A program made the translations under genes and the position numbers. The notes below the pieces were generated by a model. It saw nothing but the letters and a program-made list of their open reading frames with translations, searched no databases and was not told the DNA's origin. DNA of 64,000 bases from Gemmatimonadota bacterium (GTDB lineage Bacteria; Gemmatimonadota; Gemmatimonadetes; Palauibacterales; KS3-K002), in contig JBDHJS010000017.1 of NCBI GenBank assembly GCA_039586795.1, positions 1 through 64,000 on the forward strand, read 5' to 3'. Position 1 is the first letter of the stretch. The number at the start of each line of letters is the position of its first letter. Shown in pieces: positions 1 to 18,477 of the stretch.

Positions 1-725
1 AGAAGCTCAAGAATCTCCTTGTTTTGTTTCGTTAGCTTGTACTCAACACCGTAGGCATGGCGAACGAAGAAGAGTGGCAGCAGCACAATGAGCAATCCAC
101 CGATTCCAAGCTGCGCAAAAGCGAACACGACAAACAGAGAGAATGAACTCGACGCCAGTTCATTTGCGAACGCCACCGGGCCAAGTTCGCGCCAAATGGC
201 CCGAAGTCGTTTTCCCGTGTCGAGCGCGATCACAATACCCACGAGCGTGGTGTTGATCAGGAAGTAAGTGACTATCAGACCGCCGAGCGGCAGAACAATC
301 GGCCACAGCACGAATTCATCCGCGTGGTGACTAACTGGTCCGCCTAGCGCCCGGTAGACAACCGCCCCACACCCTATCGCCAGCGATATCTGAGCAATAT
401 TGAAGACGGCTTTAACCGGATTCTGCTTTAGAATGAGAAACTGCGATATCGTCTGAGAGAGAATGGTTGAAAGGAGTGCTACGACCGGCCCGAACAAGGG
501 GACCGTAGCGACGGTTGGGATTAGGGAAACGGAGAAGACGGCTCTGCCAGCCGAGAAGCGCACACCGAGGCCTTCGGAGACAACGGTAATCACCATTAGA
601 GCCGAAATGCCAGACCATGCCTTGGGGTCGTTGAGCGGTATCTCGTAGTTAGGTACGATGAGTACCGCAACCGCGACTGCCGCGATTGCCACAAAGGCAA
701 CGTAGGCTAGTAATGATCGTTTCAT
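1..725 (-). CDS. Multi-pass membrane sensor protein, 5' part only (runs off window); probably MASE9-type sensor with a downstream HD-GYP domain
   Basis: Absent from the ORF track because it has no in-window stop. Manual translation from ATG 725 is open to base 1: MKRSLLAYVAFVAIAAVAVAVLIV...KQNPVKAVFNIAQISLAIG...YFLINTTLVGIVIAL...GLLIVLLPLFFVRHAYGVEYKLTKQNKEILEL. About 7-8 hydrophobic segments. The output domain is inferred, not seen. Confidence 0.8.
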   Translation of the reverse strand, partial: MKRSLLAYVAFVAIAAVAVAVLIVPNYEIPLNDPKAWSGISALMVITVVSEGLGVRFSAGRAVFSVSLIPTVATVPLFGPVVALLSTILSQTISQFLILKQNPVKAVFNIAQISLAIGCGAVVYRALGGPVSHHADEFVLWPIVLPLGGLIVTYFLINTTLVGIVIALDTGKRLRAIWRELGPVAFANELASSSFSLFVVFAFAQLGIGGLLIVLLPLFFVRHAYGVEYKLTKQNKEILEL

Positions 726-766
726 AGCTCGGCGTTGAGAACGAAAGAAAAACCCCCAATCAAGCT

Positions 767-835
767 CTAGCCCCAAGTAATAGTTCCGGCAAACAAGCTC
801 GCCATTGCGAGCAACATCCGGAGCAGCCACGCCAT
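767..835 (-). CDS. 22-aa hydrophobic small peptide MAWLLRMLLAMASLFAGTITWG
   Basis: ATG 835 to TAG 769-767, preceded by AAAGGAGGTGAA (852-841); AGGAGGT lies 8 nt from the ATG. Below the ORF-track cutoff. Confidence 0.75.
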   Translation of the reverse strand: MAWLLRMLLAMASLFAGTITWG

Positions 836-840
836 GGAGC

Positions 841-852
841 TTCACCTCCTTT
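841..852 (-). promoter_or_regulatory. Extended Shine-Dalgarno for the small peptide
   Basis: Minus strand reads AAAGGAGGTGAA-GCTCC-ATG. Confidence 0.85.
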
Positions 853-895
853 CGCGGGATCATGTCACGCTGGTTTCGCTAGTCCAGCGTGCGGG

Positions 896-933
896 TACTT
901 CCGCTCCGCTAAATTCGGCTACTTCGCTCCGCT
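896..933. repeat. Direct repeat pair TACTT(C)CGCTCCGCT
   Basis: 896-910 TACTTCCGCTCCGCT and 920-933 TACTTCGCTCCGCT. Confidence 0.7.
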
Positions 934-1040
934 TCCAGTGACGCGTCAGCTAGAGCAGGATCGGGGGTTTTTTCTCACTCACGGGGCAGGCGGGGTACCC
1001 AGTGTCGTTAGGGCTCCTTTCGCTAGGTCACCGGTCCGCG

Positions 1041-1781
1041 TCAGCGGACCGACAGTATCCAGCGATTCGTGGCTTGCAGGGTCGCCAGAATCGCCGCGTG
1101 TTCCGTCGATTCATTGACCGGCGCGGCGCCGGCCAGATATGTCCTTGTCCTGCCCGATAGGCCGTACAGTGCCGTGACGACCACCGGGACATCAAATATG
1201 TCAATTAGCTTCACGCCGTCGAGGGCGAAGTTGAGATCGCCTTTTTCGGCCTTTTCGAGGGCGAAAAGGACCGCCTCGGCAGCGGCGTTCAGCCGGCCGC
1301 GCTCGATATCGGTGCCTTCTGCTTCGCCGATGAACTTCTCGCCGTCCAGGGTCAAGCGCACTCGACAGATGATGCTCTGCGGCATCTTCCGCTCGAACTC
1401 GTAACCCTCGAACAGGTAACGCCGCAGGGCAGTGCCCGACGGCCCGATCCCGATGACCTTGTTCGTCGCGGCGTTCGCCGTGCCCTGGGTTTGGGCGACG
1501 CTCACCTTGCGGTGATCGACTTTCAGGCCCAACTGGGCGAGCAACGCCGACTCGACGTTTCGTACCGTTTGCTTTGGCGTCACCGAATCGTTGGTGAGGA
1601 TATGTATCTCCTCGATCCGACCCGTCGGGTCGGCCACGATACGAGCTGACACTACACCGGTCAGCTCCCCTAACAGCGCCTCCGCTCGCTGAAGCTGCTC
1701 GGGGTCACTGCCGCTGGTAAATGCTTCCAACCGCCACGCCTCACCGAAACTGTGTTCGTTTGCCTCCACGGCCACACCCAT
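1041..1781 (-). CDS. Conserved hypothetical two-domain protein; C-terminal domain paralogous to 17908..18477
   Basis: 246-aa ORF with EEIHIL...PKQTVRNVESAL...VDHRKVSVAQ in the N-domain and FIGEAEG...AAILATLQATNR in the C-domain. Confidence 0.8.
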   Translation of the reverse strand: MGVAVEANEHSFGEAWRLEAFTSGSDPEQLQRAEALLGELTGVVSARIVADPTGRIEEIHILTNDSVTPKQTVRNVESALLAQLGLKVDHRKVSVAQTQGTANAATNKVIGIGPSGTALRRYLFEGYEFERKMPQSIICRVRLTLDGEKFIGEAEGTDIERGRLNAAAEAVLFALEKAEKGDLNFALDGVKLIDIFDVPVVVTALYGLSGRTRTYLAGAAPVNESTEHAAILATLQATNRWILSVR

Positions 1782-1822
1782 GGCTGGTCACCCGGCGGGG
1801 AGATGTCCGGGAGAGTTAGTGA

Positions 1823-3550
1823 CTAGTTCGCGATTCTGATCGCATCGCCGCCGGAGCGCTTGGCCTCCAAAAGCGCTTCATCGGCAGCGGCCAGCATCTC
1901 GTCGTAACCGGCGGTCAGGGATTCCCCCGGCCCGACTTCAGCGATGCCCACACTGACGGAGACCCCCATCTCGGTCCCGTCTTCGCCCGTGGCCCGAACC
2001 TCGGCCACACGGGCCCTTATCTCGCTTGCGACCCTCAGCGCGCCGTTCTTGTCGCCGTCCGGCAGGATGATCACGAACTCATCGCCGCCGAAGCGGGCCG
2101 CGAAATCGTTGGCGCGGATCGATTCCTTGATCACCGCCGCCACGTCACGCAAAACCTGGTTGCCGGCCGCATGTCCCAGCCGGTCGTTGACCGGCTTGAA
2201 GTGGTCGAGGTCGAGAAAGACGACCACGAACTTGCCGCCGGTCCGCCGCACCCGGGCGCATTCCTCGAGGATCCTGCTCCGCAAGACCCGGTACGAGTAA
2301 AGCTGCGTCAGCGCATCGTAGGCGGCTTCCTGCACCGCCGTCTCGTACCTTCGCGCCTGGAAGAACGGACAAATGTCCAGACGCGCCCGCGCCCTCAGTA
2401 CCGCCGCTGCGAACGACCTGCATCCTGTGAAGCCGCAGGCGCCGCAGTCCCAATCCTTGCCGTTGTTGGCGCGACCGATGCGCTGCTCGATCAGCGCCTC
2501 TACCTCGGCTTCCGTCACAATGCCGCCGTTGCCCGCCGGCTGCCGATCGGTGGAGAGATCGACCGGTTGCTTGACGTCGATCACCGGGACCGACGCCCGG
2601 GGCGGTTCGGCCTCGGCCGCGATCTCGCGCCGCAGGTAGAGCTGCGACTTGGGGCCCATGACCGGGTGGTCCAGATCTCGCTCGTAGACCAGCAGGTCGA
2701 TGAACCCGAGCTGCGGCTCGCCCGCGGAGCGCTCCACGGCCTCCGCGATCGCGGAAACCTCCTCCAGGCCTCGTACCTTCCGGAAGCGGCGCGAGTTACC
2801 GCGCTCCTCTTCCAGAACCGGCAACGGCATGCCGCCCGCCGTGGACAGATAGCGTTGCCGCCCAACCGTCTCCCGCTCCAGCTGCAGTGGCTGCTTGAGC
2901 GGCGCCGCGCCGTGCTCGTCCAGCAAGCACTCCAGCTCGGCGAAGGTGATGGACGCGTCGATCGGCCTCTCTTCCTCTTCGGGCGCCCCGAAATTGCCGA
3001 TCCCGCAGTACACAATCTTTACGCCATCACCGTGAATCCGGTGCAGGTACCGGGCTTGAGCCACGGCCGGCGTCACCACCGGCGCCATGAACGGCATCAG
3101 CTCCGGGTACCTGCGCTTCACATACTCCACCACGATGGGTGAAGTAGAGCGAATCGTCGTCCGGTCCAGCCCGTCGCGCCACAACCTCAGGTACTCATGC
3201 GCCACGAGCTCGTCGCCCAACACTCCCGGGTAAACCGCCCGGAATCCGGCGGCGTAGCAGGCATTAAGCACCTGCTCGGCCGTCGCCGGGTGGAAGTGGA
3301 CGACGGACTCCGTTCCCAAAATCAGCACCGCGGCCCGACTGTCGAGGTGCTTGCGGGCGGCCGCCAGATCGCCAGTTGCGTCGATGGCGTCATGTTGGCA
3401 GGCCGGCACGCAAAGGCCGCATTCTATGCAGCTTTTCTCGACGATTTGTAGGGTGCCGTCCTGGGTCTGCACCGCTTCAACCGGACACACCCGAACGCAC
3501 GCCATACATTCGACGCACCTCGACCGGGCTATCCGGAATGTCAAGCTCAT
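1823..3550 (-). CDS. Diguanylate cyclase with N-terminal 2x[4Fe-4S] ferredoxin, [FeFe]-hydrogenase-like and Fe-S domains
   Basis: CVECMACVRVCP and CIECGLCVPAC; DCGACGFTGC...DICP; DLDHFKPVNDRLGH...GN; RAND-FAARF-GGDEF. Confidence 0.9.
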   Translation of the reverse strand: MSLTFRIARSRCVECMACVRVCPVEAVQTQDGTLQIVEKSCIECGLCVPACQHDAIDATGDLAAARKHLDSRAAVLILGTESVVHFHPATAEQVLNACYAAGFRAVYPGVLGDELVAHEYLRLWRDGLDRTTIRSTSPIVVEYVKRRYPELMPFMAPVVTPAVAQARYLHRIHGDGVKIVYCGIGNFGAPEEEERPIDASITFAELECLLDEHGAAPLKQPLQLERETVGRQRYLSTAGGMPLPVLEEERGNSRRFRKVRGLEEVSAIAEAVERSAGEPQLGFIDLLVYERDLDHPVMGPKSQLYLRREIAAEAEPPRASVPVIDVKQPVDLSTDRQPAGNGGIVTEAEVEALIEQRIGRANNGKDWDCGACGFTGCRSFAAAVLRARARLDICPFFQARRYETAVQEAAYDALTQLYSYRVLRSRILEECARVRRTGGKFVVVFLDLDHFKPVNDRLGHAAGNQVLRDVAAVIKESIRANDFAARFGGDEFVIILPDGDKNGALRVASEIRARVAEVRATGEDGTEMGVSVSVGIAEVGPGESLTAGYDEMLAAADEALLEAKRSGGDAIRIAN

Positions 3551-3601
3551 AGTCCCAGGGGTAGCCGGACAGACTACTAGAATTGAATGGCGGGGTATCC
3601 C

Positions 3602-3631
3602 ATACTAGGTTTCGGGCCACCCCCTTGTCAA
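3602..3631 (-). promoter_or_regulatory. Putative sigma70 promoter for the cyclase locus
   Basis: Minus strand TTGACA (3631-3626), 18-nt spacer, TAGTAT (3607-3602). Confidence 0.55.
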
Positions 3632-3648
3632 GCTTACAGAACAGGGCC

Positions 3649-4134
3649 GTGAAGAAACATTTGTTTCCCCTCCTGACGGTGATCGGCGTCGCCGCTCTCG
3701 GCGGTTGCCCCTCCGGCATCGAGCCCGTTCCCTTTCAAGGCATCGGCGGCACCATATCCTTCGTCGGTGATGTGCCCGACAACACCGATTGGGTCCGTCT
3801 CATCGTCTACCGGAGCACGCCACAAGACTCCGCCGACTTCCTCGGCTTCGTCGCCTTCACGGACACACTGCCGCTGGCCCGCACGAACACTCCGTACCTT
3901 CTCGGCCTGGAGGCCGAGGAATACGGCTGGCTGCCCCTGGTCTGGAAAGAGAAAGACGCCGACCTGTCGGCTGGCTCGCTCAGAGTCCTCGGCTGGTACA
4001 CGGCGGGCGGCGGCCCCTTCGACCCGCCCGCTTCAGTCACCGTCGAAAGCGGCAAGGAAACAGATGAAGTCGACCTGGTCGGCGACTTCGACAATATGCT
4101 GACCCCCGAAGAAGTGCTGGAGCTGCTCCGGTGA
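3649..4134 (+). CDS. Putative lipoprotein
   Basis: GTG 3649 gives MKKHLFPLLTVIGVAALGG-C (signal peptide and lipobox). Stop overlaps the next start (GTGA). Confidence 0.75.
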   Translation: MKKHLFPLLTVIGVAALGGCPSGIEPVPFQGIGGTISFVGDVPDNTDWVRLIVYRSTPQDSADFLGFVAFTDTLPLARTNTPYLLGLEAEEYGWLPLVWKEKDADLSAGSLRVLGWYTAGGGPFDPPASVTVESGKETDEVDLVGDFDNMLTPEEVLELLR

Positions 4135-6320
4135 GACGCTTCGCACCTGCCCTGATACTGATCCTTTGGGCAGCGCCCCTGCCCGCCCAGCAGACGGGCG
4201 TGGTGGAGGGTCGGGTCACCGACGTCGAGTCCGGGGTGCCGGTGGCGACTGCGCTGGTGCGCGTGGTCGGCACCGTGCTACGAACCTTCGCCGACGACTC
4301 GGGCCGCTTTGTGTTGCGTGGAGTGCCGACGGGGGAGCAACGGCTGAGAGCGGAGCGGATCGGCTACGTACCCGGTGCAACCACCGTTCAGGTTCCGGCC
4401 GACGGCCGAGTCGAGGTCGAGATCGTGATGTCGCCCGAGCCCGTGGCGCTCGGCGAGATCATCACCGTGGCGACGCGGCGGACGACCACGACACTTGATG
4501 CTCCGATCTCGGTCTCGGTGATGGAGGAGCCCGAGATCATGCTCCGGGTGCCGGAAACTGTGGCGGACGCGGTGGCCTACGTGCCGGCGGCCCAATTCGT
4601 CGGCGAACAACTGAACATTCGCGGCCTGTCGGGCTATGCCCGGGGTACAGGGAGCCGGGTACTGCTGTTGATCGACGGGGTCCCGGCGAACGCCGGCGAC
4701 AGCGGCGCCATTAACTGGGATGTGATCCCGCTCACCGAGGTCGAGCGGTTGGAGGTGCTGAAGGGACCGAACTCGGCGCTCTACGGGACAGGGGCGCTGG
4801 GCGGCGTGGTGAACATCGTGACGGCCCGGGCGCCCGAGAAGCCTTTGACCCGGCTCCGATTGGTGGGCGGCCTCTACGACAATCCCCCGCAAGAGGACTG
4901 GACCTGGTCCAACGAGACCCAGGGCTTCCTGTCGGGCGAACTGAGCCACGGCCGCCGGGTGGGGGACTTTGGGTTCTGGCTGCGCGGCGGCCAGTGGTTC
5001 GACGATGGCTACCGGCAGCGCGGCGACCTGGAGCGAACGAACCTGGCGGGTGAGGTGGAATGGGCGGGCGCGTCGGACACGGTAAGCGTCTTCGGCTCGT
5101 GGGCCCGGGAAGACTACGGAGCGGCGCTGCTGTGGTGCATGCGCGGAGAGTGCCGTGATCCATACCAACTGGCGTTCCAGCCGCTGAAAATTCCCCTGGA
5201 CGCAAGGGACGACCGCACCCGTTCCGACAAGACGCGAGCGTTCCTGGGGCACCGGCACAACTGGAGCGAGACGCTGAACTCGTTCTTCCGTCTCTCCTAC
5301 CAGCGGAACGACTGGGAGACCGACTTCGGCAACGACACGGTGGGCTCGGTCTCGAACGTGTACGGCGGCGAGCTGCAATTCGACTGGCGCGCGGCGAACT
5401 GGATCTACCTGATCACGGGCGGCGAAGGCACCTACACGCCGGTGGAGGCCAACCTGTTCGGTAAGCACGACCAGTCGATCGCCTCGGGCTACATCCAGGG
5501 CGAGTTCGAGTTGGGCAGGTGGGTCACGCTGACGGCGGGCGCTCGCTACGACCAGGTGTGGATGGATGGCGGCAACTACTCGAGCCAGGTGAGCCCCCGG
5601 GCGGGGGTCGTCCTGGCACCTTATCCGGTGACGCGGATTCGTGCGTCCGTGGGCCGCGGGTTCCGGGCGCCGACCGTTGCGGAGATGTTCACGGCGACAG
5701 AGGTGGGCGGATTCCTGGTGATCCCGAACGACTCGCTATTACCGGAGCGCTCGTGGGCGGCGGAGCTCGGAATCCAACAGCTTGCCGCCTCGTGGCTCTC
5801 GTTTGATGTGGCGGGCTTCTTCTACGATCTGGCCGATTTCATCGAGGCGGACACGACGGCCACGTCGGAGGGTGGGATCGTCATCCAGTTCGACAACCTG
5901 CCGAAGGCGCGGATCGCCGGCGTCGAAGCGATCGCCGTGATGTCGTTCCTGCGCGATCGGCTGCGCGGGCAGGTCGCCTACACCTACCTACTCACGGAGG
6001 ACCGGGTGACCGGCGAGCCGCTGGCCTACCGGCCGCAACATCACCTGCTGACGGCGAGCGGGACATTCACGTTCCGCGGCCTGGAGTTCGGCGCCGACTA
6101 TCGTTACGCCTCGCCGTACGATCATGTTAAGGTGTTCACGAGCCCGGTGACGGACCCGATCGTGGCCATGAGCGTCCTGGACCTGCGGATCGCCTACCGT
6201 TTTGGCCGGCAAGTGATCCGTTTCATGGTGGACAATTCGGCCAATTACGCTTATACAACAATAGAGCGGAATATGGAGCCGGTCCGACGCTACACGTTGG
6301 GACTTGATATCCAATTCTGA
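4131..6320 (+). CDS. TonB-dependent receptor with carboxypeptidase-regulatory-like N-terminal domain
   Basis: Signal peptide, VEGRVTDVESGVPV, plug motifs VLLLIDGVP and ERLEVLKGPNSALYGTGALGGVVNIVT, C-terminal Phe. Confidence 0.92.
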   Translation: MRRFAPALILILWAAPLPAQQTGVVEGRVTDVESGVPVATALVRVVGTVLRTFADDSGRFVLRGVPTGEQRLRAERIGYVPGATTVQVPADGRVEVEIVMSPEPVALGEIITVATRRTTTTLDAPISVSVMEEPEIMLRVPETVADAVAYVPAAQFVGEQLNIRGLSGYARGTGSRVLLLIDGVPANAGDSGAINWDVIPLTEVERLEVLKGPNSALYGTGALGGVVNIVTARAPEKPLTRLRLVGGLYDNPPQEDWTWSNETQGFLSGELSHGRRVGDFGFWLRGGQWFDDGYRQRGDLERTNLAGEVEWAGASDTVSVFGSWAREDYGAALLWCMRGECRDPYQLAFQPLKIPLDARDDRTRSDKTRAFLGHRHNWSETLNSFFRLSYQRNDWETDFGNDTVGSVSNVYGGELQFDWRAANWIYLITGGEGTYTPVEANLFGKHDQSIASGYIQGEFELGRWVTLTAGARYDQVWMDGGNYSSQVSPRAGVVLAPYPVTRIRASVGRGFRAPTVAEMFTATEVGGFLVIPNDSLLPERSWAAELGIQQLAASWLSFDVAGFFYDLADFIEADTTATSEGGIVIQFDNLPKARIAGVEAIAVMSFLRDRLRGQVAYTYLLTEDRVTGEPLAYRPQHHLLTASGTFTFRGLEFGADYRYASPYDHVKVFTSPVTDPIVAMSVLDLRIAYRFGRQVIRFMVDNSANYAYTTIERNMEPVRRYTLGLDIQF

Positions 6321-6330
6321 GGGGGGGACG

Positions 6331-6987
6331 ATGCGGTGCATCGGGAGAGGATTGGCGTTGTGTGCGGCGGTCGTGACGCTGGCAGCGTGCGGGGGCGCTC
6401 CGAGAGGCGTGCCTATCACCGAGTTGGAGCCGGTGCCGACCAGCACCGTGAAGCCCGGCGACATCGTTGTGATCGAGTTCTGGCAACAGGAAGCGCTCAC
6501 CGGCGAGCGGGTGGTCGACCGCTCCGGTAATATTCACCTCCCGCTCATCGGCCCGGTTAACGTGGCAGGGCTCGATTCTTATCAGATCCAGGACAGACTC
6601 ACCGACTTCTACAGCCAATACTATTCCGATCCCCTGATCGTTGTGAGCGTACGATTGGGCGTGAACGTGACCGGCGAGGTCCGGGAACCAGCGCGATACG
6701 CGGTGGACCCATCGTTCACGGTGCTGGACGCGCTGGGCCTGGCGGGTGGTCTAACGTACGACGCGAAGGAAGAGGAAATCGAGTTCAACCGGGGCGGTCA
6801 GCGCTACATCCTCAACCTGAACGAAGCGCAACTTACGGAGAATCCGGACCTGTTACTGCTCCAATCCGGCGATTGGATCTACGTCCCGCGGAGTTTCTGG
6901 ACGCTGCAACGAACGGCGATCTATTTGTCGATGACGTCAGTCACGCTGTCGATCATCGCGATCATCGTGTCGATCTCGAACAACTAA
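6331..6987 (+). CDS. Polysaccharide biosynthesis/export (Wza-like Poly_export + SLBB) lipoprotein
   Basis: Lipobox [67 protein letters not shown]-terminal hydrophobic helix. Confidence 0.85.
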
Positions 6988-7997
6988 CAGCTGCGGTCGA
7001 CCGCCGCGGCCACCCGTCTCAACTCGCTCATCATCTTCTCGAACATCGGCGGCGTCAGCGACTGGGCGCCGTCTGACAACGCTTTCTCCGGCTCGACGTG
7101 CACCTCGACAATGATCGCATCCGCTCCCGCGGCGACGGCGGCACGCGCCATCGGCAGAACGTGATCTCGTACGCCCGTTCCGTGGCTGGGGTCGGCAACG
7201 ACCGGCAGGTGGCTCCGCGACTTAGCGACGGGTATCGCGCTCAGATCGAACGTGTTGCGCGTCGCGGTTTCGAAGGTGCGGATGCCGCGCTCGCAGAGCA
7301 GGATGTCGGGATTGCCGCACGAGGCGATGTATTCGGCGGCGGCCAACCACTCGTCTAGCGTCGCCGCCGGGCCGCGCTTCAGCATGACCGGGCGACGCGA
7401 ACGGCCGAGCTCCCTGAGCAGTGTGAAATTCTGCATGTTGCGAGCGCCGATCTGCAGGATGTCGCAGTAGTGGGCGGCCAGAGGGATCTGCGACGGCTCC
7501 ATCACCTCGCTGATCGTCAGCAGACCGTTGGCGTCCGCCGCCTTCCTCAGCAAATAAAGACCTTCTTCACCCAAACCCTGGAAGCTGTAGGGGCTGGTGC
7601 GCGGTTTGTAGGCGCCGCCTCTGAGGATCTTTGCGCCCGCCTTCGCGACGGACTCGGCGACGCGGTTCACGGTCTCTTCATCCTCGACCGAGCACGGCCC
7701 CGCCATCACCACGATCTGCTCGCCGCCGATGATGACGCCGTTGCCGACATCGATCCGCGAGTCTTCGGGCTGGAACCCACGGCTGACCAGCCGATACTCG
7801 GACCCGGAGACGGAGAGCTCGGCGATGCCGGGGAGCCCGTCGAGCAGTTCGGGGTCCGGGGTCCGGCCGACACCCGAAACGCCGAGGATTACTCGTTCGA
7901 CGCCAGAGCGGCGCGCGGTGAATCCGGCCGCGGTGATGGCGTTCACCACATCGGCGATCTGGCCTTCCGTGGCGTTCGATTCCATGACAACGATCAT
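6984..7997 (-). CDS. aroF: 3-deoxy-7-phosphoheptulonate (DAHP) synthase, type I-beta with N-terminal regulatory domain
   Basis: [52 protein letters not shown]. Confidence 0.95.
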
Positions 7998-7998
7998 C

Positions 7999-8820
7999 TC
8001 AAGCGTTCTCCGTTCTGCTACCCACCATGCGGATCCCGTTCATCAGTTCCTCGGTCTTCGCTCTCACCGCGCCCACGGCCGCATCGGGCGCGGAGTTTGC
8101 CGCCAGGTCGACGAACGCGCTGCCGACGATGACGCCATCGGCAACCCGGGCGACGCGACGCGCATCGTCAGCCGTCGTCACGCCGAACCCGACAGCGATG
8201 GGGAGCTCACAAACAGCACGCGCTCGTGCGACCTCTGCCTCCAGCGTTTCGCCTACGCCGCCGCTCGGCCCGGTAACGCCGCGCCGGCTGATCAGGTATA
8301 GGAACCCCGTGGATGCGGCCGCTGCGGCGGCCAGCCGCCGTTCGCTGGTGTCCGGCGCGCTCAGGCAAATCGTGTCGATTCCTGCGGCGTGAGCACGGCT
8401 CCACAACGACTCCGAATCCTCCGGCAGCAGATCGGGGACGAGGAGGCCCGCCGCGCCGGCGGCGGATGCGTCTTTGCAGAAGATTTCGGCGCCGTAGGCG
8501 AGCACGGGATTCAGCGCGGTCATCAGCACGATGGGAAGCCCGGGGTCCTTCGCCAGCTCGGGCAGGACTTCGATGATGCGGCGCGTCGTGATGCTGTTGG
8601 CCAGGGCGCGGGTGTAGGCGGCCTGGATGATCGGGCCATCGGCCAGCGGATCGCTGAACGGGATTCCGAGTTCGATGATGTCCGCGCCGCCTTCGGCGGC
8701 GGCGCGGACGAGCGCTACAGTCGTTGCAAGATCGGGGTCGCCGGCGGCGAGATAGGCGATCAGGGCTGCTCGGTTCTCGGATCTTGCGCGTTGGAACGCT
8801 GCTTGGATAGTTGCTATCAT
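7999..8820 (-). CDS. trpA: Tryptophan synthase alpha chain
   Basis: [45 protein letters not shown]. Confidence 0.95.
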
Positions 8821-8846
8821 CGGCCTAAGACCATCTTGGGTCGATC

Positions 8847-10007
8847 CTAATCGGCATCATCACGAACAACATCCTTGTCCCCTCGTCCCGACAGATTCAC
8901 CAGCAGGACCGATCCCGATCCAAGCTCCTGCCCCCACCTCATCGCATAGGCCAGAGCGTGGCTCGACTCCAAAGCCGGGATGATCCCTTCACTCTTGGAA
9001 AACGCCGAGTAGGCCGCCGTCGCTTCCTCATCCGTCACCGATACGTAGCGGGCGCGCCCCGTCTCCTGCAGCCAGGCGTGCTCGGGGCCAACCCCGGGGT
9101 AATCGAGACCGGCCGCGATCGAGTGCGTCGGGGCAACCTGTCCATCATCATCCTGGAGCACGAAGGAGAGGGAGCCATGGAGCACGCCGGGCGTTCCGCC
9201 GCCCAGCGATGCGGAGTGACGACCCGTCCCCAGTCCTTCGCCGGCCGCTTCCACGCCGACCATCGGGACTTCGTCATCGATGAAGGGATGGAAGAGCCCG
9301 ATGGCGTTGCTGCCACCGCCAACGCAAGCGACGAGCCCGTCCGGGAGTCGACCCAACTCTTCGAGGATCTGCTGCCGCGCCTCGCGGCCGATGACGCTCT
9401 GAAACGTCCGGACCATCGCCGGGTAGGGATGAGGCCCGACGCACGATCCGATGACGTAGTGGGTATCCCGATACGACCCCATCCAGTCGCGGATCGCCTG
9501 GCTGGTCGCGTCCTTCAGAGTCTGCGATCCGCTGTCCACCGGTATCACCTCGGTTCCCAAGAGCTCCATGCGGATGACGTTCAGGCGCTGCCGCTCCATA
9601 TCGATGCACCCCATGTAGACCTGGCAGGGGAGCCCGAGCAGCGCGGCGGCGGTCGCTGTGGCAACACCGTGCTGGCCGGCGCCGGTCTCGGCGATCAGGC
9701 GCTTCGCGCCCAGCGTTTTGGCCAGCAGAGCCTGGGCGAGTGCGTTGTTCAGCTTGTGACTGCCGGTGTGGGCGAGGTCTTCGCGCTTCAAGAAGATCGT
9801 CGCGCCGCCGGCAAGCTCGCCAAAGCGGCGGGCGCGGAAGAGGGGAGTTGGTCGTCCGACGTACGTCTTCAGGAGCTTGTCGAGCTCATCGCGGAATTCT
9901 TGGTCGCTCCAGAGGCGCTCGAAGGCGCTGGTTAGGTGGTCGAGGGCGGGGACCAGGGTTTCGGGGACATAGCGTCCCCCGTACTCGCCGAAACGGCTCG
10001 GGATCAT
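8847..10007 (-). CDS. trpB: Tryptophan synthase beta chain
   Basis: [55 protein letters not shown]. Confidence 0.97.
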
Positions 10008-10684
10008 CTTGTTAACCGGATCCTGCGGTCGGCTTCACGAACCGCCGCGACAAAGGCTTCGATCATCGACGCATCCTTCACTCCGGGTTCGGACTCCACA
10101 CCCGACGAAACATCAACACCGCCGGGCCGCAGCTGTCGGATCGCCAGGCCCACGTTATCGGGGGTCAAACCTCCGGCCACGATGACCCGGTCAAGCGGCC
10201 ACGGCAGCACGCCTGCCTTTGACCAATCGAAGGTCCGGCCGGTCCCTCCCATCTGTCCATCGAGGGGCGGCGAATCAAGGAGGAAGGCATGGGCCGGGTA
10301 GTCTTTATTGTTCTGGAGTTCGCCCTCATCCGTGACGTGAATCGCCTTGACGACGTTCGACTCCACACTGCGGGCGAGCTCGGCGGGCTCGCTCCCAGAG
10401 AGCTGGACCCAATCCAGGCGCAAGGCGGCAACCGCTTCACGGATCAGCTCGATCGGCTGGTCGGCGAAGACGCCGACGCGTCGGATATAGCCCGGCGTCG
10501 AACCAAGCACCGCTTTCGCTTGTTCCAGGTCCACCTGTCGCGGACTCTCCGCGAAAACGACGCCTAACGCGTCGGCGCCCGCCTCCATCGCTCGCGCCGC
10601 ATCCTCGGCGCGGGTCAACCCGCAAACCTTGATGCGCGTTCGTGAACTCGGCTTTGCGTGGTCCGAACCGAAATGCACGATCAT
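10004..10684 (-). CDS. trpF: Phosphoribosylanthranilate isomerase
   Basis: [34 protein letters not shown]. Confidence 0.95.
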
Positions 10685-11475
10685 CGCTCGACTCCCGAAA
10701 GCTCCGAGGTTCTTTTCGCACGCGCCTCCGACTCCAGTCGCAGGAGCGACTCGCCGACCAGTACGGCGTGAGCCCCGGCATCGCGGACGCGCCGTACGTC
10801 GTCCGCGCTCTTGATTCCGCTCTCGCTGACCAGCGTCACGTTGCCGGGGACTCGCTGCGCAAGACGGTCCGTAACCTCGAGATCGGTCGTCAACGTTCCC
10901 AGGTCGCGGTTGTTGATGCCGATCAACGTCGCCCCAACATCGAGCGCGCGCTCCAATTCCCTTTCATCGTGGACCTCGACCAGTGCTTCGAGCCCGACTT
11001 CTTTCGCGCTCTCGACCATCGCCTTCAACTCGAGGCGCGACAGGATGCGCGCGATCAGCAATGCGGCGGCTGCACCAGCTAGCCGGGTCTCGAAGATGCC
11101 GGCGATGTCGACGATGAAGTCTTTACGCAACGCGGGCAGCTGAACCGACTTCGCCACCGCCCGCAAATCGTCCAACGATCCGGCGAAGTCTGGCTTGTCG
11201 GTAAGAACCGATAGCGCGGCCGCCCCGTTCTCGTGATACATGAGGGCCACATCCTGGGGCCGCTCTCCTTCGGTCAGCTGGCCGGCGGACGGACTGCGCC
11301 GTTTGAATTCGGCGATCAGGGCCACGTGATCGCCTGCGCGGAGCGCCGCCTCCAGTGAACCGACTCGGTCCCGGGCCTTCGCACGCTCGCGTAGCCGGTC
11401 AAACTCTCTAGGCCGCGGAGCCTCCCGGGCCCGGAGCAACCTCACCTGTCGCGCCTTCTGGTCCAGGTATCCCAT
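10681..11475 (-). CDS. trpC: Indole-3-glycerol-phosphate synthase
   Basis: IAEFKRRSPS, LSVLTD, LRKDFI, IGINNRDL, VSESGI. Start placed at ATG 11475, just after the trpD stop. Confidence 0.95.
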   Translation of the reverse strand: MGYLDQKARQVRLLRAREAPRPREFDRLRERAKARDRVGSLEAALRAGDHVALIAEFKRRSPSAGQLTEGERPQDVALMYHENGAAALSVLTDKPDFAGSLDDLRAVAKSVQLPALRKDFIVDIAGIFETRLAGAAAALLIARILSRLELKAMVESAKEVGLEALVEVHDERELERALDVGATLIGINNRDLGTLTTDLEVTDRLAQRVPGNVTLVSESGIKSADDVRRVRDAGAHAVLVGESLLRLESEARAKRTSELSGVER

Positions 11476-11480
11476 GCCGA

Positions 11481-12575
11481 TCAGCCTTGCCCCCAACCGG
11501 GAATTCCGCCGTCGACCTTCTCCGCTTTCGCTCGTGTGCCGCCCTCCCGCTCGCGCAGCGCCTGCGAATAGCCGAGGAGCGAATCGAGTCGATGCAGTGC
11601 GGCGCCGGAATCGATGCTCTTGCGAGCCAGCTCGACGCCCTCGCGCAGATCTTCCGCGGCGGCGGCCGCGACGATCGCCGCGCCGGCGTTGAGGAGCGCG
11701 ACCTGGCGTGGTCCGCCATCCGCACCTTCGAGGACTGACCGCAGGATCCCGGCGTTGGTCGGCGCATCACCGCCACGAAGACTCTCCATGGAGCCGATGG
11801 ACAACCCGACATCCTCCGGGGCGATCGAGTATTCCTTCACCTCCGATCCGGTCCACTCGGCCACGAAGCTCGGTCCAGTGATCGTCAGCTCGTCCAGTCC
11901 ATCGCTGCCGTGCACGACCAACGCTCTGTCCACTCCGAGGTTGCCGAGGACCGCCGCCAGCTTGGGCGCCAACGCGCCATCGAAGACGCCCATGATCTGC
12001 GCCGTCGCACCCGCCGGGTTGCACAGCGGGCCCAACACGTTGAACACGGAACGCAGACCCAGCTCGCGGCGCGGGCCCGCCGCATGTCGCATCGCCGAGT
12101 GGAAGGTCGGCGCGAAAAGGAACGTCATCCCCACCTCGTCGAGGGCGCCCGCCGCCTCAGGCCCGGCCATATCGACCTGCACGCCCAGCGACTCGAGCAC
12201 ATCCGCCGAGCCCGTCTGACTGCTGATCGCCCGGTTGCCGTGCTTCGCCACCCTGCAATCGGCGCCCGCCGCGATGAAGGCCGCGGTGGTCGAGATGTTG
12301 AACGTCGACGACCCGTCACCTCCGGTCCCACAGGTGTCGAGCAGCTTCGGGTAGTTGTGCGGCACCGGCATCGCCTTGGCCCGAATCGCCTCTGCGCACC
12401 CGGTGATCTCATCCACCGTCTCGCCTTTTGCGCGCAGTCCCATCAAGAACGCGCCGATCTGAGCCTGGGTCGCTCCGCCGTCCATGATCACCTTCATCGC
12501 CATCGCTGACTGCTCCCGCGTGAGATCCTTCCTCGCAGCGAGCGCGCCGAGCACGCTTCGAAACTCGTCGCTCAT
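11481..12575 (-). CDS. trpD: Anthranilate phosphoribosyltransferase
   Basis: DTCGTGGDG, FNISTT, KHGNRAISS, GSADVLE, GSDGLDE. Confidence 0.96.
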   Translation of the reverse strand: MSDEFRSVLGALAARKDLTREQSAMAMKVIMDGGATQAQIGAFLMGLRAKGETVDEITGCAEAIRAKAMPVPHNYPKLLDTCGTGGDGSSTFNISTTAAFIAAGADCRVAKHGNRAISSQTGSADVLESLGVQVDMAGPEAAGALDEVGMTFLFAPTFHSAMRHAAGPRRELGLRSVFNVLGPLCNPAGATAQIMGVFDGALAPKLAAVLGNLGVDRALVVHGSDGLDELTITGPSFVAEWTGSEVKEYSIAPEDVGLSIGSMESLRGGDAPTNAGILRSVLEGADGGPRQVALLNAGAAIVAAAAAEDLREGVELARKSIDSGAALHRLDSLLGYSQALREREGGTRAKAEKVDGGIPGWGQG

Positions 12576-12578
12576 GAC

Positions 12579-13175
12579 CTAACCCTTTCGCCAACCTGCC
12601 GTTGGATGCGTCGCCAACCTCAAGAAGTTGGACAGGATCATCTCCCCGTCCGGCGTGAGTATAGATTCGGGATGAAACTGCACCCCCTCGAGTGGATATT
12701 CCGAATGCCTCAACCCCATCACGACGCCGTCATCGCTGCGCGCCGTGACCGTCAATTCTGAAGGCAGCGTCTCCTCAACAACGGCGAGTGAATGGTAGCG
12801 GCCCGCCTCGAACGGGTTGATCACGTTGGTGAACACACCCTTCGAGTCGTGTTCGACCTGACTCGTCTTTCCGTGCATCGGGCCGGGCGCCCGTTCGACC
12901 CGTGCGCCAAACGCTGCGGCGATGACCTGGTGCCCGAGACAGACACCGAGCACCGGACAGACCGGAGCCATCGTCCTCACTACATCGATGGAGTTGCGCG
13001 CGTCGTGGGGGCCGCACGGGCCCGGCGAAACGACGACACCCGCCGGCTCACGGGCGCGAACTCCATCCGCATCGATCGCATCGTTGCGATATACCTCGAC
13101 CTCGGCGCCCAACGCGCCCAGCATCTGGACGATGTTGTAGGTGAAGGAGTCGTAGTTATCGATCATCAGGATCAT
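12579..13175 (-). CDS. trpG: Anthranilate synthase component II (glutamine amidotransferase)
   Basis: IDNYDSFTYN, SPGPC, GVCLGHQ, RYHSL, QFHPES. Confidence 0.95.
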   Translation of the reverse strand: MILMIDNYDSFTYNIVQMLGALGAEVEVYRNDAIDADGVRAREPAGVVVSPGPCGPHDARNSIDVVRTMAPVCPVLGVCLGHQVIAAAFGARVERAPGPMHGKTSQVEHDSKGVFTNVINPFEAGRYHSLAVVEETLPSELTVTARSDDGVVMGLRHSEYPLEGVQFHPESILTPDGEMILSNFLRLATHPTAGWRKG

Positions 13176-14677
13176 TCTGTCGCTCCGGACAAGCCCAACG
13201 CCGCCATCAGCGCACGCGCCTTATCGTTCGTCTCTTCCAGCTCCTTCTCCGGCACCGAGTCCGCAACGATCCCGGCGCCCGCCTGCACGTGCGCCTTCCC
13301 GCCATGCACGATGATCGTGCGAATCGCGATGCACGTATCGAGGCTCCGTGCCCCGAACCCGACGTACCCGATCGCTCCGGCATAAGCGCCGCGGCGAACC
13401 GCCTCCAGCTCCTCGATGATCTCCATCGCTCGGATCTTCGGAGCGCCGCTCACGGTGCCCGCCGGGAAACAGGCCTCGAGGGCACCGAGCGTGTCGACGT
13501 CGTCGCGCAAGCGGCCGGTCACCGTCGAAACCAGATGCATGACGTTGCGGTAGCGCTCCACCGACATCAGGGTAGGCACGTGGACGCTGCCCGGAGCGCA
13601 GACGCGACCGAGGTCGTTGCGGCCCAGGTCGACCAGCATCACGTGCTCCGCTTTCTCCTTCGGATCGGCGCGCAACTCCTCCTCGAGCCCCGCATCCTCG
13701 TCCGGATCCTTGCCCCGTGGCCGAGTGCCGGCGATGGGACATACCTGGGCCGCATCGCCCGCTGCCCGGATGAGCATTTCGGGGCTCGCACCGACCAGCG
13801 CGACTTCCGGAAACTCGAGGAAGAACATGTAGGGGCTGGGATTCAACACGCGAAGTGCGCGGTAAAGGCGGAACGGGTCGCCGTAGATCGGAAGCGTCAG
13901 CCGTCGGCTGAGCACGACCTGGATGGCGTCGCCGGCCAGGATGTACTCCCGAGCCCGCGCCACCGCGTCGACGAATGTGGCGTCGTCGGGCGCGCGCTCG
14001 GCGCTCTTGAGCAACATGTCGGCGTCATCGGCGCTGCCCATCGTCTCGAACGGCGGCGGCGGCGCGGCGCGGCGCAAGGCGTCCGCCAGTTCTTCGACCC
14101 GGGCGATCGCGCGATGATAACCGTCCTTGCGGGGTGTGTGCGGCGGAATGACCGACACGACCATCATGCGCTGCTTCAGATGGTCGAAGATCAGCATCGT
14201 CGCGTAGCGAGCGAACAGCGCCGCGGGAAACGGAGAGGCATCGGGGAGATCGCTGGGCAGCCGTTCCAGGCTGCGCACGAAGTCGTAGCCCAGCGCGCCG
14301 ACCACGCCACCGATGAACCCCGGCAGCCCGTTTCCGGGGTGGTGGATCGGCGCGTCACCGACCAGCTGTCGCAGCGCTTGGATCGGCGTGCCTTCGTACG
14401 AGGTGACGCCGCTCTGCGTCTCCACCGTGCCGCGATCCAGATCGGCGCGCAGCACCGAGTCCGGCCCCACGCCGATGAACGAGTAGCGACCGAGGCTGCC
14501 GTCTTGCTCGGCGCTCTCGAGGAGGAAGCCGGTACCGCCGCGACGCAATTTTAGGAAGGCGGAGATCGGCGTCTCGGTGTCCGAGGGCAAGGCGCGCCAG
14601 ACCGGAATCGACGCGTCGATCGGCGCCGCGAGGACTTCCTCCAACGAAGGTTGTAGCTGCTTGTGGAACACGATCAT
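13172..14677 (-). CDS. trpE: Anthranilate synthase component I
   Basis: FLLESAE, GRYSFIG, NPSPYMF, PIAGTRPRG, EHVMLVDLGRND, PAGTVSGAPKIRAM. Start is ATG 14677 or GTG 14671; the ORF-track start at 14719 lies inside the terminator. Confidence 0.95.
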   Translation of the reverse strand: MIVFHKQLQPSLEEVLAAPIDASIPVWRALPSDTETPISAFLKLRRGGTGFLLESAEQDGSLGRYSFIGVGPDSVLRADLDRGTVETQSGVTSYEGTPIQALRQLVGDAPIHHPGNGLPGFIGGVVGALGYDFVRSLERLPSDLPDASPFPAALFARYATMLIFDHLKQRMMVVSVIPPHTPRKDGYHRAIARVEELADALRRAAPPPPFETMGSADDADMLLKSAERAPDDATFVDAVARAREYILAGDAIQVVLSRRLTLPIYGDPFRLYRALRVLNPSPYMFFLEFPEVALVGASPEMLIRAAGDAAQVCPIAGTRPRGKDPDEDAGLEEELRADPKEKAEHVMLVDLGRNDLGRVCAPGSVHVPTLMSVERYRNVMHLVSTVTGRLRDDVDTLGALEACFPAGTVSGAPKIRAMEIIEELEAVRRGAYAGAIGYVGFGARSLDTCIAIRTIIVHGGKAHVQAGAGIVADSVPEKELEETNDKARALMAALGLSGATE

Positions 14678-14690
14678 TCCTCGATCCATC

Positions 14691-14739
14691 AAAAAAGAAA
14701 GCGGGCGCGGTCCCCTCATCGGGAGAGGAGCGCGCCCGC
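14691..14739 (-). terminator. trp attenuator intrinsic terminator
   Basis: Minus strand GCGGGCGCG-CTCCTCTC-CCGAT-GAGGGGAC-CGCGCCCGC followed by TTTCTTTTTT. Confidence 0.92.
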
Positions 14740-17476: not shown

Positions 17477-17907
17477 CGTCGGGCAGCCTTCCGCAGGCGC
17501 CGGTCTACCGGTGTCGCGGCCGGGTCGGGCTACGTTGATCTCACGTTTATCGACCGCTCTTCCTCCAGGCTTCGCGAGCGACTGTAGGACCGAGTACGCG
17601 CATATTCACATGTTTCCGCTCAATTGTGGCATCTGGACCTCAACAGATCATCAAGAGAGTCCGTTTCGATGGTCCGCCTACGAACGGAACGCCAGGCTTC
17701 GACACATTTTGCCGAATGTCCGGAGGTCACAGGAGCGCCGCCCGCCCGAGGCCGAAATCGGTATCGTTCAACTGGACATAGGGTTACGCCGAAGACCGGG
17801 TGGCGTAGAGACACCGGTGGCCAGATATTTGCCATGCAGGCAATAGCCTCCCCGCTCGTGTTTCTCTATCATCTGTGTGGCCCGAGGGGTTTGGTCTGAC
17901 AGAGAAG

Positions 17908-18477
17908 ATGAGCAACAGCGAGTTTCCAAAAGACTGGCGTAAGAAGTGGCCTTGGCCAGAGTGGCTGGCTGACGGCGGTCTTCCTGAGGAGCAGTTGATG
18001 GCGCTTCAGGAGGAAGCCGAGAAGACGGCCAACGAGTCGTGGATTTCCGGGGGACCGCAGGTTGTGCCCGCGGTGCCGCGGCGGCGCTACATCTATCGGG
18101 CGACCCAGATGACCCGAGTGGCGCCGAACTCGTACCGCTGCCGGGTCACGATCTTCTCAGCCAACGGTGAATTCACGGGTCAATCCGAGGGTCCCGAGTT
18201 TCCGGGAGCGCGGGCGGAGGTCGCCGCGCGTGCAACCCTGGACGCGCTGAACCGGGCCGAGCACGGCAGCGTGACCCTGGGGCTGAAGGGCGCCCGGGTA
18301 CTGCGCCTGTTCGAGAGTCCGATCGTTGTGGTCGGCGTCTACGGAATGACCACGGGGACGACACCGCTGGTGGGCGTCTGCCTGCTTGACACGTCGGTGG
18401 AGCAGGCGGCGACCCTGGCCACGCTCCAAGCCGCCGACCGCTGGCTGGCCTGGGAAGCGAAGAAGCGCACGACCTAG
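17908..18477 (+). CDS. Hypothetical protein; C-terminal domain paralogous to 1041..1781
   Basis: CRVTI...FTGQSEG...AARATLDALNRAE...AATLATLQAADRWL aligns with the C-domain of 1041..1781. Confidence 0.8.
   Translation: MSNSEFPKDWRKKWPWPEWLADGGLPEEQLMALQEEAEKTANESWISGGPQVVPAVPRRRYIYRATQMTRVAPNSYRCRVTIFSANGEFTGQSEGPEFPGARAEVAARATLDALNRAEHGSVTLGLKGARVLRLFESPIVVVGVYGMTTGTTPLVGVCLLDTSVEQAATLATLQAADRWLAWEAKKRTT

Follow-up and report, generated by a model that had tools for sequence, protein, structure and literature searches.

In several peptide signaling systems, including ComS/SHP-Rgg, Phr-Rap, and agr, a tiny precursor gene adjoins the gene of its cognate signaling protein and the C-terminal core of the peptide is variable. 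MgrB-PhoQ and SafA-PhoQ are examples of small membrane modulators acting on sensors, and TRAP, HutP, and PyrR of protein-gated leader RNAs. MASE9 is a widespread sensor domain for which we know of no ligand. Here we describe a locus of a Gemmatimonadota bacterium in which a 22-amino-acid (aa) hydrophobic peptide is encoded within a structured leader RNA, between the gene for an unnamed 246-aa protein and that for a MASE9 membrane sensor. The window, i.e., the whole stretch of DNA that was analyzed, is the first 64 kb (64,000 nucleotides [nt]) of contig C105 (JBDHJS010000017.1 in GenBank assembly GCA_039586795.1), which belongs to a 4.68-Mb genome that is 97.8% complete. As judged by comparative sequence analysis, the module is real, present in multiple phyla, and undescribed; its mechanism is proposed. 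The literature searched, mostly without subscription papers, contained no description of this peptide, RNA, or protein.

The likeness of the locus to the pheromone systems (SHP-Rgg, Phr-Rap, and agr) lies in the tiny hydrophobic precursor gene, the variable C-terminal core, and the cognate neighbor. It differs from them in that the neighbor is a membrane enzyme of cyclic di-GMP (c-di-GMP) metabolism, rather than a cytoplasmic Rgg/Rap protein or a histidine kinase, and in that a structured RNA surrounds the gene. The original prediction, made from the letters of the window, had drawn a parallel with agr-type systems. This parallel was not borne out: the window peptide lacks Cys, and its neighbor is MASE9(-HD-GYP), not a histidine kinase. 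No match to AgrB was detected in the genome, and no control genome passed the cutoff either. Pfam and NCBIfam searches of the flanking genes detected no TPR/Rgg receptor family. Protein-gated leaders such as that of TRAP resemble the locus in their repeated short single-stranded motifs (NAG-NN spacing), terminator-like helix, and adjacent candidate ligand-binding protein, but here there are two to three tandem repeats plus one in a loop, and the fold predicted for the candidate reader is unrelated. As with MgrB/SafA-PhoQ, a membrane sensor is the predicted target of a single-helix hydrophobic peptide; the peptide described here is shorter, is co-encoded with the sensor, and would act on a phosphodiesterase. 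On the tested features, the cassette is outside agr, RNPP/Rgg, and TRAP. By analogy, these comparisons suggest that it may combine a pair of the pheromone-receptor or small-modulator kind with a protein-gated leader.

The sensor domain (PF20972) and, in relatives of the window locus, the output domain are shared with the MASE9-HD-GYP enzymes TM1467 of Thermotoga maritima and HdgA of Streptomyces venezuelae (10.1101/2021.11.05.467447). The available part of that paper describes two short segments of MASE9 that form an intramembrane hairpin and suggests ligand binding within the membrane; it does not give the ligand, and its main text contains neither "peptide" nor "Gemmatimon." In Clostridioides difficile, small membrane-associated proteins under RNA control (CD1980.2) are likewise tied to c-di-GMP (PMC13724677); by its description, which is the level at which it is compared here, that system differs in having a known class I c-di-GMP riboswitch, a family that Rfam did not match here, and downstream effectors.

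RESULTS

A small hydrophobic ORF is conserved next to the MASE9 gene

The small open reading frame (ORF) lies at positions 767 to 835 of the minus strand and encodes a 22-aa hydrophobic peptide with a G-x-I-x-W-G core at its end. It is preceded by a strong Shine-Dalgarno (SD) sequence, AAGGAGGTGA, at positions 842 to 851 of the same strand, and a GAAAGGAGGT-type site is invariant in relatives. The ORF, whose presence had been proposed originally, was found in the loci of 23 of 27 relatives. The other four loci comprised two whose genomes have the peptide elsewhere, one at a contig end, and one that was not scorable. Across the phylum, a small ORF chosen solely by SD sequence and hydrophobicity was present in 26 of 29 MASE9 loci. 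Full-length loci of Armatimonadota carried a peptide in 22 of 23 cases (17 detected by script and 5 by eye), and short metagenome loci had such a peptide in 7 of 38.

The 81 distinct peptides obtained ranged from 14 to 39 aa, and all groups were hydrophobic. A W was located within the last five residues in 64 of them, and Cys was found in 5. Peptides from the window's own family end in G-x-I-x-W-G, with the x positions (18 and 20 of the peptide) being variable, and those of the sister family are 14 to 16 aa long. Outside the Gemmatimonadota (Armatimonadota, Bacillota, actinobacterial, and metagenome loci), the peptides are signal peptide-like, with an early K or R in 32/32 and an [AGS][GS]A site in 23/32; the own-family peptides are unlike signal peptides, since a charged N-region was observed in 6/15 and an AGA site in 0/15. 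Two loci contain a duplication of the peptide core in which the copies differ at third codon positions only (3/3 and 2/2 changes), and in a third locus an overlapping unit is duplicated exactly. As the core repeats have third-position changes only, they point to selection on the peptide product.

A structured leader RNA encloses the small ORF

Conservation among relatives extends over the 205 nt located 5′ of the small ORF. A long-range helix, P1, encloses the ORF by pairing of a 5′ arm (959 to 976, minus strand) with a 3′ arm (744 to 761, minus strand), i.e., 976-959 with 761-744. The 3′ arm, with its U-tract, lies directly behind the stop codon and is terminator-like in the window's own family, in which the G-C core of P1 ended 14 to 15 nt past the stop codon in 14/14 loci. 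Folding of the window element gave a z score of −4.71. A plain alignment (19 sequences) had 92% of the P1 cells paired and 5 of the 14 pairs varying on both sides, and in 56 of 77 loci a contiguous P1 helix outscored 38 or more of its 40 shuffles.

Within P1 are two tandem AGCG(G/A)AGCG repeats (901 to 934, minus strand) and a hairpin, P3 (866 to 891, minus strand), with UAGCG(A/G) in its loop. The repeats are kept across phyla and, in the window, form the densest AGCG cluster of the genome. The stem of P3 has been rewritten, with 57 different 5′ arms among 66 loci, whereas the loop retains its motif, and two-sided changes were observed for 7/7 pairs in an alignment fitted to the structure; as the P3 set of 71 loci was partly picked by the motif, 66/71 is not a frequency. 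In 26 loci for whose selection the motif played no part, AGCG(A/G) occurred a mean of 3.7 times versus 0.69 times in shuffles, and the count in 22 of these was equaled by no more than 5 of 200 shuffles. In 68 of 79 loci, opening the start of the small ORF cost more energy than it did with a shuffled leader (13.1 versus 9.5 kcal/mol), and clade-specific anti-SD helices adjoin the repeats.

With a covariance model trained on 6 own-family sequences, 37 matches were obtained in 73 loci, all of them located in the leader and 7 of them in Armatimonadota. The AGCG leader recurs in Armatimonadota, Bacillota, and actinobacterial-like loci, and the AGCG core precedes similar peptides in Armatimonadota, Natranaerobius, and Subdoligranulum. 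Using a loose pattern on metagenomes, 14 of 80 analyzed loci were true and 66 looked like chance matches. No second strong site was found with the RNA model in any of 61 genomes; one other motif cluster (C73:17728) was within a coding frame and was unmatched by model R2. This model is insensitive across the phylum, as 65 of 106 protein-bearing genomes were without a listed match under strict filters. Searches of Rfam 15 gave no match on the leader at the gathering score for the window or for sets of 14 and 7 loci.

Two described readers of RNA were considered. CsrA-type GGA loops did not fit the invariant core, which is AGCG, with loops of AGCGA, AGCGG, or AGAGA; no search was made for CsrA itself. 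TRAP was rejected because PF02081 was absent from the genome, while the Bacillus subtilis control was detected. One metatranscriptome contig spans positions 754 to 963 without differences. It does not count as evidence of a separate RNA, since of the 246-aa gene the sister run contained only a portion, and an isolated contig of 777 to 977 was obtained from a DNA run as well. At position 977, two DNA runs and relatives have approximately 20 more bases than the window, which has a small deletion or an assembly collapse there, within a hairpin specific to the family and located immediately 5′ of P1.

The 246-aa protein accompanies the leader RNA

The gene at positions 1041 to 1781 (minus strand) encodes a two-domain protein of 246 aa that is a candidate reader of the leader RNA. 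RNA matches (E < 0.001) were detected in 26 of 61 genomes, and all 26 had the full-length protein. Two of the 28 genomes with the protein had no RNA match, one owing to a contig end and the other not being scorable. In the phylum sample, 41 of the 43 genomes with an RNA match had the protein. The gene lies beside the RNA even where it is divergent (L152 and L185) or convergent (G052). For the 14 true metagenome loci, the gene was adjacent in 11 (two of these being divergent); in two it was not present within 1.3 kb, and one was undecided. In Nonomuraea, a similar 34-aa ORF ending in W precedes a MASE9-HD-GYP gene, the AGCG leader is gone, and no tblastn match to two different 246-aa homologs was present in the record. 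Four fusions of the C-domain alone to GGDEF likewise have no leader. This joint pattern is suggestive of a functional link between protein and RNA.

The gene was present in 106 of 151 genomes of the phylum sample and MASE9 in 75. Of these 75, 73 also carried the 246-aa gene, the other two being contig edges. The oldest unit consists of the 246-aa protein, the structured RNA, the peptide, and MASE9-HD-GYP.

No sequence match for the protein was found in Pfam, NCBIfam, or the PDB, and Pfam searches over 106 members and the Atlas also gave none; the unnamed family comprises 2,965 cluster representatives at an E value of ≤0.001. A structure model (predicted local distance difference test score [pLDDT], 85.6) has two domains. 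The C-domain (residues 120 to 245) matched 3f6g with a Z score of 10.3 and a root mean square deviation of 3.0 over 110 aa and matched LeuA by Foldseek with an E value of 3.5e−5, and it is predicted to adopt the (beta-beta-beta-alpha)2 fold of the LeuA/CimA regulatory type. The fold is shared with the LeuA/CimA allosteric domain (3fig and 3f6g), from which it differs in having 12 to 15% identity, no Pfam match, and no joined enzyme. A PF08502 profile gave no match anywhere in the genome at an E value of ≤1, while 14/14 controls were detected. The N-domain (residues 24 to 99) has an alpha-beta-beta-alpha-beta topology. Its best matches, CDF C-terminal, ANL, BolA, and EscJ domains with Z scores of 7 to 8.7, represent a common fold, and it has no GxxG loop of the kind found in KH type II RNA-binding domains. 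R47, K70, R74, and R91 of the N-domain are kept in 85 to 96% of 194 homologues; these conserved Arg/Lys residues fit with putative RNA binding. The protein had been labeled an adaptor; by its predicted fold, it appears instead to be a ligand-sensing regulator, which may act on the RNA.

Several related arrangements were observed. A stand-alone LeuA-type C-domain paralog (38% identity) is encoded on the plus strand of the window at 17875 to 18477, before an ABC transporter ATPase, and similar copies occur in many relatives. The C-domain is fused behind GGDEF in four Armatimonadota loci (L104, L105, L106, and L108). A gene with an N-terminal helix-turn-helix-like part and a receiver-like part (identified by eye) lies between the 246-aa gene and the RNA in L049, L056, L068, and L077. 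DUF5317-type membrane genes lie beside the cassette in Bacillota and in an actinobacterial-like locus (L080, L170, and L211); they are annotated in L080 and were recognized by eye in the other two.

The sensor and its second copy

The MASE9 sensor gene (positions 1 to 725, minus strand) is truncated after 241 aa by the contig start, before the expected HD-GYP domain; its MASE9 (PF20972) score was 36.4 bits against a cutoff of 24.3. The earlier expectation that the sensor ends in HD-GYP was confirmed in relatives, with the domain being in frame in 16/16 of those with enough DNA; the window copy itself is cut. The leftward extension suggested along with it was not obtained, as the window start overlaps no other contig. 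The HD, HHE.YDG.GYP, and RPYR motifs were intact in relatives and in a second MASE9-HD-GYP gene located in the last 1.3 kb of contig C64 of the same genome (G000; L001:11626-12849, minus strand), the N terminus of which is lost at the contig end. This copy was 62% identical to that of the window, indicating that it is a second copy or allele and not the missing half, and relatives were nearer to the window copy in 13/13 comparisons. It is followed by a convergent STAND-type regulator, as is the sensor in 4 relatives. From these arrangements, C64 is probably a continuation of this locus, by tandem duplication or as one of two alleles. The G+C content at third codon positions is 0.52 to 0.64 in MASE9-HD-GYP (window positions 1 to 725 and relatives) versus 0.76 to 0.83 in neighboring genes. 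MASE9 also diverges faster (56 to 68% versus 72 to 79%), and many assemblies break in this segment.

The Fe-S cyclase, promoter, and flanking genes

All four genes, which are present as ORFs in the window, and the promoter are on the minus strand. The four co-oriented genes and single promoter described originally were thus all present, and their layout is kept among Gemmatimonadota relatives; in 27 loci of relatives, the cyclase was upstream in 25 and MASE9 was seen in 19. An output domain was present in relatives, and both synteny and the small ORF were kept. As a four-gene unit, the description held for synteny, but it included the cyclase, an accessory, and missed the leader RNA. The predicted sigma70-type promoter (TTGACA-18-TAGTAT; 3602 to 3631, minus strand) is within chance expectation as a match by itself (1 site in positions 1 to 6000 versus 0.8 expected); TTGACA-17/18-TANNAT was located 52 to 69 nt 5′ of the cyclase gene in 11/11 relatives checked.

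The iron-sulfur (Fe-S) diguanylate cyclase (575 aa; 1823 to 3550, minus strand) contains Fer4, Fe_hyd_lg_C, FeS, and GGDEF domains by Pfam, arranged as two [4Fe-4S] ferredoxin clusters, a degenerate [FeFe]-hydrogenase-like part, FeS (PF04060), and GGDEF with an RxxD site. The PF00990 match, of 133.8 bits, was above the cutoff. The GGDEF and DxDxFK motifs were intact in 11/11 cyclase sequences, and RxxD was also invariant. Diguanylate cyclases usually have G-D after GH..; here, G-N was found in 11/11. By family and motifs, the window protein is a GGDEF diguanylate cyclase, predicted to synthesize c-di-GMP. All 12 cluster cysteines were invariant in the 11 sequences, and C98 was the only other invariant Cys in the hydrogenase-like part. 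The H-cluster motifs of [FeFe]-hydrogenases are TSCCP, MPC, and ExMAC..GC. The H-cluster cysteines were not found in the 11 aligned cyclases, in which these stretches read STSP, YSG/YCG/YAG, and YERD, and the TIGR04105 score of 81.9 was below the cutoff of 450. Owing to the lack of H-cluster cysteines, the input is more likely to be redox or cluster state than H2 catalysis. The cyclase gene immediately preceded the 246-aa gene in 70 of the 106 genomes carrying the latter, a count for which the coordinates of two scans were matched by eye, and no cyclase was found within the 1.5-kb flanks of full-length Armatimonadota loci. This distribution indicates that the cyclase is an accessory of the cassette.

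A divergent gene for a 183-aa lipoprotein-like protein and a gene for a TonB-dependent-receptor-like protein (named by eye) lie at 3583 to 6320 on the plus strand and are kept upstream in the window's own family. Aromatic amino acid genes (DAHP synthase, trpA, trpB, and trpE-like; named by eye) are located near the locus, at 6984 to 14719.

DISCUSSION

Gene order, RNA fold, peptide conservation, and domain content are established for this locus. As a tentative reading, held with slightly less than even confidence, we propose that the W-ending peptide core acts on MASE9 and that the 246-aa protein gates expression through the leader RNA, thereby determining the output of both peptide and enzyme. 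The protein would sense a small ligand via its LeuA-type domain and bind three to five single-stranded AGCG motifs, a step we regard as somewhat probable. The bound protein would then set initiation at the small ORF, with translation to the stop codon disturbing P1 and lifting a block on read-through into the sensor gene; the chances of this step appear to be evenly balanced. When the ORF is not translated, P1 and the U-tract (in the window's own family) would stop or dampen read-through. We consider it fairly likely that the hydrophobic helix presents the C-terminal G-x-I-x-W core, whether or not it is cleaved off, to MASE9 within the membrane and so tunes c-di-GMP breakdown. Some members of the phylum would later have gained a redox-sensing Fe-S cyclase upstream as the opposing activity.

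Several observations weigh against this proposal. Protein-RNA co-occurrence is largely linkage among kin, and joint loss of the two rests on one genome, that of Nonomuraea. The metagenome loci L170 and L211 have the RNA but no 246-aa gene within 1.3 kb. For the N-domain, no KH protein was present among the 50 matches listed, the best being CDF, ANL, and ring-building domains. Codon pairs among own-family peptides had more nonsynonymous (586) than synonymous (367) differences. A U-tract followed P1 in 14/14 own-family loci but in just 8/42 others; hence, termination at P1 is not general, and attenuation may be a local feature. The ribosome site of the window locus was no more closed natively (8.5 kcal/mol) than after shuffling of the leader (9.8 kcal/mol). 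When the AGCG motifs were forced to be unpaired, the ribosome site was no more open than with random blocks (n = 79, P = 0.26).

A more far-reaching version of the proposal is possible, though we would not expect it to be correct. The cassette would then represent a new class of peptide signaling, spread over several phyla, with c-di-GMP as its direct target. The peptide would be an exported signal: a W-ending core of 4 to 8 residues would be cut out, leave the membrane, and be sensed, in lineage-specific pairs, by the cognate MASE9 phosphodiesterase of the producing cell or its neighbors; a ligand-dependent, AGCG-reading family of RNA-binding proteins would gate production.

Among the alternatives, a cis-acting leader peptide fares best and is nevertheless unlikely. 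Translation, maybe slowed at the Trp or at a PPP tail, would open P1 and the product would be irrelevant. Such a role agrees with the position of the ORF inside P1, with a 3′ arm that starts from the stop codon at a fixed distance to the core end (14/14 loci), with a W that adjoins the stop codon, and with the aromatic-PP tail found in 11 of 21 Armatimonadota peptides. It does not account for a hydrophobic helix kept across phyla, for core duplications with synonymous changes, or for the retention of the peptide without the RNA in Nonomuraea.

We give a still smaller probability to the peptide being an uncleaved, constitutive membrane subunit for MASE9 folding or dimerization that carries no signal, with the RNA keeping stoichiometry. 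Peptide and sensor are always neighbors, and the low frequency of charged N-regions and absence of the AGA site in own-family peptides are in keeping with such a subunit; the sister-family peptides of 14 to 16 aa are, however, short for a membrane span, and variation of core positions 18 and 20 within a fixed frame argues against it. The intramembrane hairpin reported for MASE9 in the paper cited above (10.1101/2021.11.05.467447) would also suit a subunit.

It is comparably doubtful that the 246-aa protein works at the protein level, as an adaptor or ligand sensor serving the cyclase or the phosphodiesterase, with the AGCG RNA being read by a general host protein or, as in a riboswitch, by a metabolite. 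Four of five C-domain-only matches were fused to GGDEF; the RNA without an adjacent gene in L170 and L211 and the lack of a listed KH match point the same way. Against this, no second strong RNA site was found by the model in any of 61 genomes, which does not resemble a global regulon. Where single-stranded motifs recur at variable spacing, as the AGCG repeats do, a protein reader is generally suggested. Finally, a type I toxin-like mRNA (an enclosed 245-nt unit) placed before the sensor by chance, which the hallmarks of a short hydrophobic ORF, strong SD sequence, and end-to-end long-range pairing bring to mind, is highly improbable given one strong copy per genome, few charged residues, and a link to MASE9-HD-GYP that is fixed across phyla.

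If the tentative reading is correct, the cassette supplies a candidate ligand for MASE9, a core of 5 to 7 residues. It also provides an RNA motif new to Rfam and a large unnamed protein family with a predicted job, and versions occur in the cultured bacteria Natranaerobius thermophilus and Subdoligranulum variabile. Should the core prove to be exported, peptide signaling would feed directly into the turnover of c-di-GMP, including in diderm phyla.

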